Shown here one piece after another: positions 2,696 through 33,792 of a DNA stretch of 33,792 nucleotides. Both the position numbers and the translations under genes were made by a program. The notes beneath the pieces are model-generated. The model worked only from the letters and a program-made list of their open reading frames with translations, was not told where the DNA came from and did no database searches. The DNA comes from a virus, in IMG/VR virus record IMGVR_UViG_3300045988_021627, positions 1 through 33,792 of that record. One strand, given 5' to 3'. Numbering within the stretch: position 1 is the first letter of the stretch; every line of letters begins with the position of its first letter.

Positions 2696-5134
2696 ATGGA
2701 TTTACGAAAAATGGTTTTTAAAATTGCTACAGCGAGTAGCGCGAAGTCTACTTCATGGAAAAACCGTTCTTTCTCATGGGACGAGTTAACCGAGAAGCTG
2801 ACAAAGGCAACCGTTACGGATGAGACGTACCGGGAGTTTATAAGCGCGAGCAAAGCCGAGCAGGGTAATATTAAAGACGTAGGCGCATTCATGGGCGGCG
2901 AATTGTTCGGTAGCCGTAGAAACAAAAACAATGTAGGCGAGCGTTCCATTTTGGCGCTTGATATTGACTACGGAGAAAAGAACTTCCCCGAAATGTTCTA
3001 CTCTGTTATTAATTGCGCATGTATCATTCACGGAACGCACAGGCACAACCCGAAAGCGAATACACTTCGTTACCGTGTTATCATTCCGTTGTCCGAACCA
3101 GTGGATGGGGAGCAATACGAGGCTATCGCCCGTAAGGTCGCCGAGTTGACGGGTATCGACTTGTACGACAGAACGACGTTTCAACCCGAACGCTGTATGT
3201 TTTTCCCGTCGGTTTCCAAAGACGTAGAGTATGAGTTTATAGATTACTCGGCATTCAACGAAAACCCTTTGGACGTGCAAAAGTATTTGGATATGTACGA
3301 CGATTGGAGCAATACGACCGAGTGGGCGTACCACAAGGACGAGAAAGGCGAAGCCCGGACGCTTGCTAAAGAACAGCAAGACCCCACACTAAAAGAGGGT
3401 AATGTGGGTGACTTCTGTAGAGCCTACACGATTAGCGAGGTTATCGCGGAATACCTATCGGACGTTTACGAACCTACCGAGCAGGAGGACAGATGGACGT
3501 ATACGGGTGGTTCTACTTCAGGCGGTATGCTTACCTTCAATGATATGTTCGCTTATTCGTTCCATAACAACGACCCGATACAGGGCAACCACGTGTTCAA
3601 CGCCTACGACCTTGTACGTGTACACAAGTTCGGTAAGCTGGATAAAGGCGCGGATAGGAAGAACTCGACCGAAGCCATGAACGAGTTGGTAAACAAGGAT
3701 GCAAAGGTAGCCGCGGCACGTGCCCGGATGCTGGCAGTTAAGGCTGGTGAAATCATGGACGATTTCGACGACGTTATAGAAGTAGAAGAAGCAACAGACA
3801 GCGACGTAGCGACAACGTATGAGGACGCGATGGCGAAGCTCGAAACGGACAAGCGCGGCGCTTACCTCCCATCTGCAAAGAATTTAGGGTTGATAATGAA
3901 GTATGACCCGAATTTAAAGGGGCTTATAGCGCGAGACCTATTTAAAGAGCGCCGGGTTGTTACCCGTGTACCTCCATGGCGCGCGAAAGATACCTCTTTG
4001 GACTTCCAGGACGTGGACTATTCGGGCGTACGTAAACACATTGAGGATATTTATGGCATATCGAATAGTGCAAAGATTGACGATGCTATAGCGCTGTCCG
4101 CGGAAATGAACTCATTCCACCCCGTGCAGGAATACCTAACCAAATTAAAGTGGGACGGTATCGAAAGAGTTGATAAAGCGCTTACCCATATCATGGGAGC
4201 GGAAGATAACATATACACCCGTGAGGCATTCCGTATCATGATGGTAGGGGCTGTTAAACGTATATTTCAAAAGGGGTGCAAATTCGACAGCATGTTAGTT
4301 CTACAGTCCGAGCAGGGCGCAGGAAAGAGCACATTCATCCAAAAGCTGGGTAAGCAATGGTTCTCCGATAGCCTTTCAAGTATGGACGGTAAGGGCGCTT
4401 TTGAACAATTGCAGGGTAACTGGATATTGGAGGTAGCCGAGTTGTCAGCAATGAGACGTTCAGAAGTTGAAGGCGTGAAAAACTTTATTTCCAAAACGGA
4501 GGACAGCTTCAGACCGGCATACGGACGCGTTACCAAGAACTTCCCCCGGCAATGCGTCTTTATAGGTACGACCAACCGGGACGAATTTCTAAAGGACGAT
4601 ACGGGCGGCAGACGCTTTTTGCCCGTGAAGGTTAAGGCGAACGCGAATACGCATCTTATCTTTGAAAAGGGGTTCGACGATTATGTAGACCAGCTATGGG
4701 CTGAAGCCGTACAAATGTATTTCCGCAAGGTAAGTACGTTACTATCTCGCGAAGCCGAGGCGATTGCCGAGGAAGGACGCGAAGAGCATTTCGAGGCAGA
4801 CCCCCGTACCGCATCGGTGGAGGCGTATTTGGATATGCTTGTACCTACCGATTGGAGGCGCATGTATGTGAATGAAAGGCGCATGTACTTTAGAGAGTAC
4901 GACGAATCGAAGGTAGACCCGGAAGACTTTACACTGGGAAAGATGGACTTCGTGTCCATTATGCAAATCGCTACAGACGTGTTCGAGATGGAAGTAGGGC
5001 GCGTAACCGCTAAAGAGAGCAGAGAGATAGCCGCCATCATGTCTAAGGTACAAGGGTGGCGGCGATCGGCGAACGGGAAAACCGTTATGGGTATCGGACG
5101 CGTACGAGGGTTTGAGCGTATTGTTAACGAGTGA
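2696..5134 (+). CDS. Primase/helicase fusion: an AEP (prim-pol-like) N-terminal domain plus a VirE/D5-type P-loop NTPase
   Basis: 812 aa. The N-terminal half has the acidic motif LALDIDYG. The C-terminal half has Walker A SEQGAGKST and Walker B WILEVAELS. The start lies 4 nt after the polymerase stop. Confidence 0.8.
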   Translation: MDLRKMVFKIATASSAKSTSWKNRSFSWDELTEKLTKATVTDETYREFISASKAEQGNIKDVGAFMGGELFGSRRNKNNVGERSILALDIDYGEKNFPEMFYSVINCACIIHGTHRHNPKANTLRYRVIIPLSEPVDGEQYEAIARKVAELTGIDLYDRTTFQPERCMFFPSVSKDVEYEFIDYSAFNENPLDVQKYLDMYDDWSNTTEWAYHKDEKGEARTLAKEQQDPTLKEGNVGDFCRAYTISEVIAEYLSDVYEPTEQEDRWTYTGGSTSGGMLTFNDMFAYSFHNNDPIQGNHVFNAYDLVRVHKFGKLDKGADRKNSTEAMNELVNKDAKVAAARARMLAVKAGEIMDDFDDVIEVEEATDSDVATTYEDAMAKLETDKRGAYLPSAKNLGLIMKYDPNLKGLIARDLFKERRVVTRVPPWRAKDTSLDFQDVDYSGVRKHIEDIYGISNSAKIDDAIALSAEMNSFHPVQEYLTKLKWDGIERVDKALTHIMGAEDNIYTREAFRIMMVGAVKRIFQKGCKFDSMLVLQSEQGAGKSTFIQKLGKQWFSDSLSSMDGKGAFEQLQGNWILEVAELSAMRRSEVEGVKNFISKTEDSFRPAYGRVTKNFPRQCVFIGTTNRDEFLKDDTGGRRFLPVKVKANANTHLIFEKGFDDYVDQLWAEAVQMYFRKVSTLLSREAEAIAEEGREEHFEADPRTASVEAYLDMLVPTDWRRMYVNERRMYFREYDESKVDPEDFTLGKMDFVSIMQIATDVFEMEVGRVTAKESREIAAIMSKVQGWRRSANGKTVMGIGRVRGFERIVNE

Positions 5135-5214
5135 TAACAGAGGGGGTGTAAAAATCCCCAAATGTTAACTAACTGTTAACAGAATAACTAAATGCGATTT
5201 ATTTCTTAAATGGT

Positions 5215-5256
5215 GTTAACGGAATATACAACCTATCATTATTTGCCGTATATTTG
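5215..5256 (+). promoter_or_regulatory. Early-class phage promoter E1
   Basis: GTTAAC 5215-5220, AACCTA 5230-5235 and TATATTTG 5249-5256. Six other sites share the same 15-nt and 19-nt phasing. Confidence 0.7.
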
Positions 5257-5298
5257 TAATGTCAAAAGGAAATAATAACAATTTAAAAACAAAAGATT

Positions 5299-12170: not shown

Positions 12171-12213
12171 AGCCCGAATCTGATTACAAAATGTCAGATT
12201 TGGGCTTTTGTTT
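12171..12213 (+). terminator. Rho-independent terminator ending the early/middle operon
   Basis: A 13-bp stem, AGCCCGAATCTGA (12171-12183) with TCAGATTTGGGCT (12194-12206), has one G-U pair and is followed by TTTTGTTT. Confidence 0.85.
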
Positions 12214-12249
12214 ATAATTAGAAAAAAGGGGCTCTAAAATTAACAGAAT

Positions 12250-12464
12250 TTAACCACACCTGCACAGTAAAAAATCGCTACTGTGCAGGTCTCTGTGCAC
12301 TCTAACTCTCTATATTATAATATATTATATGTAAATGCACAGATGCACAGTAAAAAGAGGGTAAAACATTATTTTGGAGAAAAGTGTATTTTAGGGGGTG
12401 TAAAATATACTATATCCTATATTAAAGTTATGAAAAAAAGGTGTGTGTCTGTGCAGGTGTCTGC
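12250..12464. repeat. Non-coding element A, homologous to 29057-29282, with six CTGCACAG/CTGTGCAG-type motifs
   Basis: Block-wise alignment with element B. Shared blocks include TTAACCACA..CCTGCACAGTAAAAAATCGCT.CTGTGCAGGTCTCTGTGCA, ACAGTAAAAAG.GG.TAAAACATTATT.TGGAGAAAA, ACTATATCC and TCTGTGCAG. Confidence 0.85.
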
Positions 12465-12566
12465 AACGTTCAGTGAGATAGGTAGTTACAGTGTACACAT
12501 ACAGAATATTGTAAATATAATTCATTTGTAAACTTTATTTGTAAAAAAGGCCTAACTGACCGTAGG

Positions 12567-12597
12567 TTGGTCTGATGCGATTTGTTGCCTACCTTTG
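12567..12597 (+). promoter_or_regulatory. Bacteroidota-type promoter facing the repeat array and terS (candidate late promoter)
   Basis: TTG 12567-12569 and TACCTTTG 12590-12597 are separated by 20 nt. Confidence 0.55.
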
Positions 12598-12626
12598 TGC
12601 CATGATTGAAACGATACGTATCGCCG

Positions 12627-12924
12627 TCCCAATACCGGGATAGTCCGAATACCGGGATAGTCCGAATACCGGGATAGTCCGAATACCGGGATAGTCCCAA
12701 TACCGGGATAGTCCGAATACCGGGATAGTCCGAATACCGGGATAGTCCGAATACCGGGATAGTCCGAATACCGGGATAGTCCCAATACCGGGATAGTCCC
12801 AATACCGGGATAGTCCCAATACCGGGATAGTCCGAATACCGGGATAGTCCCAATACCGGGATAGTCCCAATACCGGGATAGTCCGAATACCGGGATAGTC
12901 CGAATACCGGGATAGTCCCAATAC
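12627..12924. repeat. Tandem array of a 17-bp unit, TCC[G/C]AATACCGGGATAG: 17 full copies plus a 9-nt partial copy, with no spacers
   Basis: I counted the units one by one. Sixteen of the 17 positions are invariant. Position 4 is G or C, in the order C GGG C GGGG CCC G CC GG (C). Confidence 0.97.
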
Positions 12925-29007: not shown

Positions 29008-29014
29008 TTAGGAG

Positions 29015-29046
29015 ATGGAGGGCTGTTAACAGTTCTCCATTTTTCG
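29015..29046 (+). terminator. Rho-independent terminator ending the late/lysis operon
   Basis: Stem ATGGAGGGCTG (29015-29025) with CAGTTCTCCAT (29030-29040), loop TTAA, followed by TTTTT. Confidence 0.8.
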
Positions 29047-29056
29047 TTTACATTCG

Positions 29057-29282
29057 TTAACCACAGCCTGCACAGTAAAAAATCGCTGCTGTGCAGGTCT
29101 CTGTGCAGTCATAACTCCTCTATATCAACTACTTATCTATACTTGCACAGTAAACACAGTAAAAAGGGGTTAAAACATTATTCTGGAGAAAATAGCATTT
29201 ACCACTATAGAACGGGCTGTAAAAACCACTATATCCGAAATGAAAGTTTAGAAATTTAGGCGTGTTTCTGTGCAGTGCAGTC
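29057..29282. repeat. Non-coding element B, homologous to 12250-12464, with five CTGCACAG/CTGTGCAG-type motifs
   Basis: It has the same ordered conserved blocks as element A. Motifs occur at 29068-75, 29089-96, 29101-08, 29144-50 and 29268-75. Confidence 0.85.
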
Positions 29283-29375
29283 TACGCCATTGGGAATCAG
29301 CACTTTAGCCCGCACCGACTGTTTCTTTACATCTTTTCACTTTTGATTAAGGTTTATTAGCACAAAAAGAGATAC

Positions 29376-29402
29376 AACCTATCAGTATTTGCCGTATCTT
29401 TG
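29376..29402 (+). promoter_or_regulatory. Early-class promoter E4, a near-duplicate of E1 that lacks the upstream GTTAAC
   Basis: AACCTA 29376-29381 and TATCTTTG 29395-29402. The 45-nt block ACAACCTATCAGTATTTGCCGTATCTTTGTAATGTCAAAAGGAAA differs from 5228-5272 at only 2-3 positions. Confidence 0.7.
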
Positions 29403-32981: not shown

Positions 32982-33014
32982 ATAACCGGGCGGTGTAATG
33001 CCGCCCAAAATAAA
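32982..33014. repeat. 33-bp direct repeat, copy 1 (contains a hairpin), on the 5' side of the tRNA
   Basis: ATAACCGGGCGGTGTAATGCCGCCCAAAATAAA is identical to 33090-33122. The internal stem is GGGCGG/CCGCCC with loop TGTAATG. Confidence 0.95.
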
Positions 33015-33090
33015 GTCCCATAGCTCAATTGGTTAGAGCACTACACTGATACTGTAGAGGTCGGCAGTTCAACTCTGCCCGGGACTACCA
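33014..33090 (+). tRNA. tRNA-Ile, anticodon GAU, with an encoded CCA end
   Basis: Manual cloverleaf: acceptor AGTCCCA/CGGGACT (one mismatch at 7-66), U8, D arm GCTC-AATTGGTTA-GAGC, anticodon arm CTACA-CTGATAC-TGTAG, variable loop AGGTC, T arm GGCAG-TTCAACT-CTGCC, discriminator A, then CCA. Confidence 0.85.
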
Positions 33091-33122
33091 TAACCGGGCG
33101 GTGTAATGCCGCCCAAAATAAA
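33090..33122. repeat. 33-bp direct repeat, copy 2, on the 3' side of the tRNA
   Basis: Identical to 32982-33014. It starts at the last A of the tRNA's CCA. Confidence 0.95.
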
Positions 33123-33130
33123 AAGCAAAA

Positions 33131-33792
33131 ATGGGGAAATATGATTCGTACGTAAACGCAGAAGGCGTTAGAATTTCAAAAGCGACGGGCAAACCGTTGA
33201 AGAAGTATAATAAAGTCAACAAGGCATATTGGGCGGCTCGTGAGGGCAAAACGGTAGTAGCAGTACAGCAACCTATCGTTGAGGCTGACCCGTTGATAGA
33301 GGAGCTTAAAAGCTATTACAACGAGGAAGAGCTAAAGGGTATTATCGGTTTGAAGAAGGACGCGCCCCCCGTCGAACTGGTAGACATCACACCGAAGAAA
33401 AAGACATCACTCGATGAGGGTAACACGGGCTTTCTTATTGCATCAGACTGGCATGCTGACGAAGTGGTAAAAGCTTCTACGGTGTTGGGCAAAAACGAGT
33501 ATAACAAGGATATTGCAGAAAAGCGTATCACTAATTTCTTTGCAAATGCCGCGTACATGATAAAGAGAAAGCCCGTAGATAACCTGGTTATCGGTTTGAT
33601 TGGTGACATGATAGGCGGCTACATACACCCCGAACTCGAGCAAACAAATAGCATGTCACCTATGCGAGGTGTTAACTTCGTTAAGAACCTAATTATTTCC
33701 GGGCTTAAGTATTTGCATGACCAGTTACCCGAGGTTAACAAAATTACTGTAATCGGTATATGTGGAAACCATTCAAGAACTACAAAAAAAAT
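33131..33792 (+). CDS. Calcineurin-like metallophosphoesterase, N-terminal part (runs off the window and continues at 1..558)
   Basis: My translation starts MGKYDSYVNAEGVRISKATGKPLKKYNK... and contains ASDWHADE (DxH) and GLIGDMIGG (GD). There is no stop before the window end. A-rich leader. Confidence 0.85.
   Translation, partial: MGKYDSYVNAEGVRISKATGKPLKKYNKVNKAYWAAREGKTVVAVQQPIVEADPLIEELKSYYNEEELKGIIGLKKDAPPVELVDITPKKKTSLDEGNTGFLIASDWHADEVVKASTVLGKNEYNKDIAEKRITNFFANAAYMIKRKPVDNLVIGLIGDMIGGYIHPELEQTNSMSPMRGVNFVKNLIISGLKYLHDQLPEVNKITVIGICGNHSRTTKK
33674..33792. repeat. Terminal overlap copy 2 (identical to 1-119)
   Basis: Read directly from the sequence. Confidence 0.95.

Follow-up and report, generated by a model that had tools for sequence, protein, structure and literature searches.

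The Rep proteins of SaPIs (Staphylococcus aureus pathogenicity islands), satellites of Gram-positive bacteria, are self-loading helicases that also serve as replication initiators through a C-terminal winged-helix domain, which recognises penta- or hexanucleotide (5-6-nt) iterons (PMC9371898). A SaPI origin contains 6-12 iterons; close to its middle there is an AT-rich region, flanked on either side by two or more iterons, those of the two sides facing opposite ways (PMC9371898). The complex of SaPI1 Rep1 with DNA is represented by PDB entry 7PDS (PMC9371898). In Bacillus phage SPP1, two elements of the same repeat-plus-AT organisation, oriL and oriR, are both bound by gp38; oriL fires, and the proposal for oriR is that gp38 bound there stalls the fork and triggers a switch from theta replication to concatemer synthesis, with an exonuclease, an annealing protein, an SSB and a resolvase as helpers (PMC6316719, PMC3485210).

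Here we compare these systems with two elements, A and B, in a virus sequence of 33,792 nucleotides (IMG/VR record IMGVR_UViG_3300045988_021627, positions 1 to 33,792), hereafter the window. We conclude that both elements are real and functional. They are probably duplicated Rep-iteron arrays of the SaPI type, located about half a genome apart and read by the primase-helicase of the phage, with a probable role as origins.

Source genome and its two module junctions

Bases 1-119 of the window are identical to bases 33674-33792, from which it follows that the assembly is circular (or circularly permuted) with a size of 33,673 bp. The window is the full circular genome, 33.7 kb, of a lytic Bacteroides uniformis siphovirus, with 87-89% identity to the lytic B. 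uniformis siphoviruses EMB1/EMB2, BU1-1, BU2-1, BU3-1, BU241P1, C2_18_80S2P and others. Siphoviruses of this group, about 34 kb in size, are common lytic phages of human-gut Bacteroides, and to our knowledge nothing has been described about their replication and regulation. The proposed family "Bacteroiduroviridae" takes them in (PMC12694917).

All genes of the window are on the + strand and are arranged in two modules. The early module, for replication and recombination, begins at about 29.5 kb, passes over the start of the window and ends at 12.1 kb. Its products, as judged from the annotations of relatives and our own Pfam and PHROG searches, are a DUF2800 exonuclease, a DUF2815 single-strand-binding or annealing protein, a metallophosphatase, PolA, an 812-aa VapE-type primase-helicase (Rep), a VRR-NUC protein and an SNF2 helicase. 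The late module (13.0-29.0 kb) contains the genes for terminase, structural proteins and lysis. Elements A and B are located at the two early/late junctions and are separated by 16,808 of the 33,673 bp, nearly exactly half the circle; in the complete isolate genomes for which the distance was computed it was 0.48-0.54 of the genome. This spacing may perhaps be no more than a consequence of the two modules being equally large. The GC skew is uniformly positive along the window, since all genes are on one strand, and was of no help in locating an origin. A gene for tRNA-Ile (anticodon GAT, 33014-33090) is flanked by two identical 33-nt repeats (ATAACCGGGCGGTGTAATGCCGCCCAAAATAAA, region 32982-33122), each of which holds a GC-rich hairpin.

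A first-pass annotation, made from the sequence alone, had placed both elements immediately after a terminator that ends a module and ahead of the promoter of the next one. This placement was borne out for A as well as for B by terminator-like hairpins upstream and Bacteroides-type -7 boxes downstream (Table 1). Promoters were searched for with the pattern TAnnTTTG; a sigma-70 scan was set aside as not meaningful for Bacteroides. No TAnnTTTG box was found in the scan inside or just upstream of A or B, and in the window the distance from the last iteron to the -7 box is about 130 bp for both elements.

The window also contains a family of early promoters, at approximately 5198, 7482, 10234, 29800, 31919 and 32320, with the shared architecture TTAAA-N4-GTTAAC ... 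AACCAAC ... GTTAT(A/C)TTTG, the last block being the -7 box. The common upstream part suggests a shared upstream activator or an UP-like element. A leader, AAAAACAAAAGATTATG, is common to many genes. A near-perfect tandem array (12626-12924) of a 17-bp unit, GTCCGAATACCGGGATA, in 17.6 copies with 97% matches, separates the candidate late -7 box (12590) from the start of the terminase small-subunit gene (12997). In relatives this array is absent, shorter or built from a different unit, and the region between A and the small-subunit gene varies from about 250 to 1376 bp. The array could serve for packaging or terminase binding; alternatively, it could form a hypervariable 5' leader.

Architecture and conservation of the two elements

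The block-by-block similarity of A and B that the first-pass annotation had reported was upheld by formal alignment. The mean column identity was 84% with MAFFT (12230-12480 versus 29037-29300), and BLASTN aligned 221 nt with 78.7% identity (E = 1.6e-42). The exact 8-mer CTGCACAG or its complement CTGTGCAG is present in 7 copies in the 33.8-kb window, all of them inside A or B, as compared to a chance expectation of 0.44 and a maximum of 3 copies in 100 shuffled sequences, none of which reached 7. For the 7-mer TGCACAG, 11 of the 12 copies in the window are located in A or B. The earlier motif coordinates were all correct, as were the inverted repeat in A, its AT-rich stretch and the observation that the ORF at 12283-12531 is without a counterpart in B. 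In our analysis the inverted repeat, CCTGCACAGT/ACTGTGCAGG, has 10-bp arms and an 11-nt spacer. The extents given for the elements needed a small revision: the homology itself was confirmed, but it starts about 10 bp earlier than had been indicated, at TTAACA near 12240. Its right end coincides with the last motif copy.

Both elements have the same core, in which two iterons are followed by a 36-bp AT-rich spacer and by two iterons of opposite orientation. Around this core there is one outer iteron on the left and, on the right, a conserved segment of about 100 bp that ends in a distal iteron. Counted as 7-mers, there are six iterons in A and six to seven in B (Table 1).

Table 1. Coordinates of elements A and B, their parts, the flanking signals and the rep gene in the window (+ and -, strand;., no strand)
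Feature	Position	Strand	Description and basis
rep gene	2696-5134	+	812-aa fused primase and VapE-like helicase, proposed iteron-binding initiator
Rep residues 788-797	5057-5086	+	GW-RRSANGKTV, hypervariable beta-hairpin "wing" of the C-terminal domain; covaries with iteron sequence
Terminator-like hairpin	12171-12206	+	closes early module, just upstream of A
Element A	12240-12457	.	iteron array between end of early (replication) module and terminase genes; homology to B; syntenic in 11/11 fetched isolates and in IMG/VR relatives
Iteron m1	12261-12267	+	TGCACAG, outer copy, inverted repeat with m2
Iteron m2	12281-12287	-	TGCACAG
Iteron m3	12293-12299	-	TGCACAG, abuts AT-rich spacer on left
AT-rich spacer of A	12300-12335	.	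83% A+T, putative DNA-unwinding element; read from sequence, AT-window map
Palindrome	12311-12324		14 bp, TATATTATAATATA, inside AT-rich spacer of A
Iteron m4	12336-12342	+	TGCACAG, abuts AT-rich spacer on right
Iteron m5	12344-12350	+	TGCACAG
Non-iteron segment of A	12351-12448	.	conserved, with ACTAT and AAAGTT blocks; alignments of 24 and 47 elements
11-mer	12362-12372		TAAAACATTAT, in non-iteron segment; invariant in 47/47 aligned elements
Iteron m6	12449-12455	-	distal copy, right end of A/B homology
-7 box	12590-12597	+	TACCTTTG, Bacteroides type, candidate late promoter downstream of A; TAnnTTTG scan
Terminator-like hairpin	29011-29044	+	closes late module, just upstream of B
Element B	29047-29279	.	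paralogous iteron array between lysis module and first early genes
B iteron	29069-75	+	
B iteron	29089-95	-	
B iteron	29101-07	-	
Spacer of B	29108-29143		69% A+T
B iteron	29144-50	+	
B iteron	29153-59	+	AACACAG
B iteron	29268-74	-	followed by an overlapping partial copy
-7 box	29395-29402	+	TATCTTTG, Bacteroides type, first early promoter downstream of B; TAnnTTTG scan, early promoter repeat family

All of the 13 related isolate records gave at least two BLAST matches each, and each of the 11 whole isolate genomes that were fetched had one element of the A type and one of the B type, located at the same two junctions. In these 11 isolates, the identity of the A orthologues is 80-93% with A as compared to 72-82% with B; since they are closer to A than to B, the two copies are old paralogues, with local signs of occasional gene conversion between them. 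Another 23 elements came from a pattern scan of IMG/VR, and 67 IMG/VR loci were retrieved with rep in the middle and 10 kb on either side, many of which include both elements; synteny was kept across these loci. There was no presence/absence polymorphism: at Rep identities between 96% and 58%, all examined relatives for which the region was recovered have retained both copies. Relatives without either element, to which the first-pass annotation had pointed as counter-evidence, were thus not seen among those examined.

The motif, on the other hand, differs between lineages: we observed TGCACAG, TGACCAG, TACACAG, GACACAG, GGCACAG, GGAACA, GTAACA and GTGACA. In every genome examined in the lineages with 95%, 72-75% and 58% Rep identity, the same over-represented motif was found at both junctions. 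Within the close group most genomes have TGCACAG and others TACACAG or GACACAG, and the more distant lineages have GGCACAG, GGAACA, GTAACA or GTGACA. In phage BU183P1 and its relatives, TGACCAG is present at all forward copies and at m3 in both elements, while m2 and m6 read CTGGGCG. The lineages with 72-75% and 58% Rep identity carry about 3-11 copies per element of their own 6- or 7-mers. Phocaeicola phage BV283P3, with a Rep about 59% identical, has a homologous pair of elements at the same two junctions (309 bp, 76% identity) with a wholly different motif, GGAACA/TGTTCC, and a copy number and orientation that differ between its two elements. The non-iteron segment is partly kept in the GGAACA lineage.

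A few genomes deviate from these patterns. In element A of BU3-1 and BU1-1, two of the six iterons are variant, with CTGAGTC at m2 and TACTCAG at m4, which are mutually complementary, and element B retains the standard copies; the deviant copies could result from templated repair between inverted copies or represent a second specificity. Element B of one IMG/VR relative (L140) has TGCACAG iterons in its left half and TACACAG iterons in its right half, its element A and its Rep wing being of the TACACAG type, and is apparently a recombinant origin-like array. In the lineages with 59-62% Rep identity, no obvious short iterons were found in the two junction regions. These lineages (BS162P3, L186-L190 and L197, with BS162P3 as L131) have a different C-terminal Rep tail (…DWEFRG…), and the two junction regions of BS162P3 have a 45-nt segment in common, in inverted orientation.

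A scan of 185,579 bacterial and archaeal species genomes produced one true copy of the element, the other hits being chance matches. This copy is of the A type, 91% identical to the window, and is located at approximately 786-805 on a 15.8-kb contig (CAZYSQ010000029.1) binned in an "uncultured Acholeplasmataceae" MAG. The contig is probably mis-binned phage DNA rather than a host copy.

Rep and the covariation of its wing with the iterons

The Rep protein matched the Pfam VapE-like domain PF05272 (E = 5e-80) as well as primase and helicase families in PHROGs, and its residues 393-732 matched SaPI1 Rep1 in PDB entry 7PDS (E = 1.4e-77). An AlphaFold2 model of residues 393-812, based on 64 homologues, had a pLDDT of 92.4; an earlier model from a shallow alignment of 15 sequences (pLDDT 37) was discarded. 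Foldseek superimposed the model on 7PDS over approximately 432 columns with TM scores of 0.82 and 0.77, the C-terminal domain included. The C-terminal end of the model consists of helices followed by a beta-hairpin (helix-helix-beta-hairpin, model residues 360-416), and Rep is accordingly predicted to have a C-terminal winged-helix DNA-binding domain. In a sequence-profile search of the PDB with this domain, the match to 7PDS reached the linker only. Matches of the domain to triosephosphate isomerase were considered spurious.

No DnaB-type helicase or loader is listed in the record annotations, and none of the small early proteins belonged to a DNA-binding family by Pfam or PHROGs. The segment immediately 3' of rep (5135-5298) contains no iterons; of the two arrays, one is 7.1 kb downstream of the gene and the other 7.3 kb upstream.

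The hairpin GW-x-R-x-A-x-x-x-x-V at residues 788-797 is the only hypervariable patch in Rep proteins that are otherwise 94-97% identical, and its sequence goes with that of the iterons. Wings with ANGKT, AKARP, AGQKA or ARQIA are found with TGCACAG, AGR(R/K)A with TGACCAG (4 genomes), A(D/E)A(K/R) together with K/R at 789 with TACACAG (8 genomes), ANARPVV with GACACAG, SRQRVKSYGQQ with GGCACAG, (A/S)TRRSKAYG with GTAACA and (G/S)VRR(C/N)KA with GTGACA. The GGAACA iteron is found with SRRRCKAHGN on a Rep backbone 75% identical to that of the window (L170) and with S(R/K)RR.CKAYGN on a backbone 58% identical. The occurrence of similar wings with the same iteron on these two backbones indicates that the wing tracks the iteron and not the rest of the protein. 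The code is degenerate, with at least four wing variants accompanying TGCACAG.

We calculated the normalised mutual information between alignment columns and iteron class in 47 genomes. The values for Rep residues 793, 794, 796 and 789 were 0.77, 0.68, 0.64 and 0.53, whereas the best column in 13 control proteins reached 0.43 and most were below 0.3; these statistics are descriptive, since the genomes are related, mosaic and recombining and the samples are not independent. The controls include genes located between rep and each of the elements, so that linkage does not account for the signal. Variable small ORFs beside or downstream of rep did not track the iteron class. No protein stood out by its whole-protein identity in the TGACCAG phage BU183P1, and a column-wise analysis was therefore required. 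From this comparative covariation, the iteron sequence appears to be specific to the cognate Rep variant.

Proposed origins, alternative readings and biological meaning

Because the wing, the part of Rep predicted to read DNA, varies together with the motif among related gut Bacteroides phages, A and B are most likely twin docking platforms for the primase-helicase. By analogy with the SaPI proteins, the C-terminal winged-helix domain of Rep would read the iterons through its beta-hairpin wing. Rep oligomers formed on both sides of the spacer would then melt the AT-rich DNA and load themselves as helicases, after which the fused primase would prime and the phage PolA would extend. Both copies may fire, or one may fire while the other, bound by Rep, serves as an auxiliary site or as a fork barrier in the manner of SPP1 oriR. 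We infer these steps, from binding to melting and initiation, as well as any division of labour between A and B. An origin had been among the options raised in the first-pass annotation and is the one that fits best, with the Rep homology, the layout and the covariation now added to it. The same annotation had matched the elements to nothing described, a statement that no longer holds: SaPI origins are a described analogue, and oriL and oriR of SPP1 are a precedent for the two copies.

The likeness to SaPIs covers the homologous initiator, as seen in the profile match and the predicted fold, which is fused to a primase as in SaPI5 PriRep, and the array of 6-7 short iterons with a central AT-rich region and at least two opposed iterons on each side in both A and B. 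In both systems the iteron sequence is tied to the cognate Rep variant, a link that is suggested here by covariation. The differences are that the host of the system is a lytic Bacteroides siphovirus and not a Gram-positive satellite, that the iterons have 7 nt with an invariant CAG, and that there are two copies at module junctions about 7 kb from rep, whereas a SaPI has one origin immediately 3' of the gene. Elements A and B also add the conserved non-iteron segment and the distal iteron, and their role as origins is putative.

The window resembles SPP1 in that a single circularised siphovirus genome contains two homologous elements with repeats and AT-rich DNA, of which one belongs to the late region, and in an analogous set of recombination and restart proteins (the DUF2800 exonuclease, the DUF2815 protein, VRR-NUC and SNF2). 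The initiators are unrelated, since the partners of gp38 are a DnaB-type helicase and a loader and the candidate here is a VapE-like primase-helicase. Moreover, the SPP1 repeats are direct and not opposed short iterons, oriL is located inside gene 38, and oriL and oriR are about 13 kb apart in a genome of 44 kb as compared to half a genome here. In the satellite phage P4, the C-terminal domain of the alpha primase-helicase binds the same octamer iterons in ori, which fires, and in crr, which is auxiliary. The fused primase-helicase as candidate initiator and the same short iterons in two separate cis elements are features in common with our phage, but ori and crr have distinct roles and are not homologous over their full length. 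The large T antigen of SV40 is a replicative helicase and initiator with GAGGC pentanucleotides as its repeats. Viruses of this type, with SF3 helicases, likewise have opposed short repeats beside an AT-rich tract, in the control region that separates early from late units, although they are eukaryotic viruses with one origin and a DNA-binding domain without detectable sequence homology, so that the comparison is an analogy only.

The position of each element after a terminator and upstream of the -7 box of the next module would also suit arrays that act mainly in transcriptional control, as operators, enhancers or insulators at which Rep or another phage factor times the early/late switch or blocks read-through, like a viral initiator that represses early and activates late promoters. 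In BV283P3 the distal motif copies even adjoin promoter parts: the -7 box for the late genes (TACCTTTTTG) at one junction, and at the other the element upstream of the first early promoter. In the window, however, either -7 box is some 130 bp away, no separate regulator covaries with the motif, and other early promoters of the same family are without such arrays; opposed iterons around an AT-rich spacer are the layout of an initiator-helicase and are unnecessary for an operator. We therefore consider transcription an unlikely main function, while a regulatory side-role at the junctions is possible and would be compatible with Rep binding and an origin. The array for a phage regulator that the first-pass annotation had suggested accordingly stands as a protein-binding array, but the likely protein is a SaPI-Rep-like primase-helicase and not a classical regulator.

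That annotation had also raised the option of paired cis-acting structured RNAs, which might be put- or nut-like antitermination sites or small RNAs with stems formed from the inverted CTGCACAG/CTGTGCAG copies. Both strands of A do fold better than shuffled sequences (z = -4.2 and -5.8), with nested m1:m6, m2:m5 and m3:m4 helices, but any set of inverted repeats would fold into such helices. Changes in the m1:m2 hairpin look compensatory in some relatives (L033, L081 and L093), yet in a comparison of 97 unique elements, similarity was as high between copies of one orientation, which are unable to pair, as between opposed copies, and the m2:m5 cores were identical in 31% of the elements and in 13% if either copy was non-standard. 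Given this orientation-blind covariation, a copy number and orientation that vary between A and B and among lineages, a motif that tracks a protein segment and the lack of an Rfam match to A or B at E values up to 1 (the search of the whole window gave only the tRNA), a structured RNA is very improbable; a location after terminators and before promoters is also the wrong place for put or nut sites. Slightly less credible still is a selfish or neutral duplication, either MITE-like and bounded by the 8-10-bp inverted repeats m1/m6 or a relic of recombination. The outer copies could be read as terminal inverted repeats (ACCTGCACAG...CTGTGCAGGT in A), their length, about 200 bp, is in the usual range for a MITE, and there are the signs of occasional conversion between A and B. 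Against this, both copies are at the same two positions in every relative for which the region was recovered, the motif changes jointly at all of its copies, and the only true copy in the species genomes is on a contig that is probably phage DNA. An invertible promoter flanked by m1/m6 was rejected, as there is no -7 box inside, no annotated recombinase gene and far more than two motif copies. A packaging site was likewise discarded, B being far from the terminase genes.

Several observations do not fit easily with arrays of iterons for Rep. The spacer of B is less AT-rich than that of A (69% versus 83% A+T), the strongly conserved non-iteron segment of about 100 bp, with the invariant TAAAACATTAT in it, falls outside the model, and the arrays are not adjacent to rep, unlike those of SaPIs. 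To these can be added the deviant ACTCAG/CTGAGT copies in element A of BU1-1 and BU3-1, the missing obvious iterons in the lineages with 59-62% Rep identity, the degeneracy of the wing code, and a winged-helix assignment that comes from a predicted structure.

If A and B are origins with Rep as their initiator, as we think probable, they provide candidates for both components in gut Bacteroides siphoviruses, and would bring phages of Bacteroidota into the range of the SaPI type of system, with its self-loading helicase and iterons, beyond the satellites of Gram-positive bacteria. The duplicated, opposed placement at both early/late junctions is a departure from the SaPI layout. The matched wing and iteron variants form a natural series, where one or two altered bases are matched by a few residues. 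Possible uses are the dissection and re-engineering of initiator specificity, phage-derived replicons for Bacteroides and the prediction of replication compatibility among co-infecting phages. A bolder version, which we hold to be conceivable but doubtful, is that A and B are a programmed pair and not redundant: one would fire, and Rep at the other would form a barrier to forks and transcription, triggering the switch from theta to concatemer replication and insulating early from late genes, with the pairs of wings and iterons as a specificity code for replication incompatibility groups of co-circulating phages. If this were true, the placement of the two elements about half a genome apart at both module junctions would be a selected feature of the whole family of gut Bacteroidales siphoviruses.
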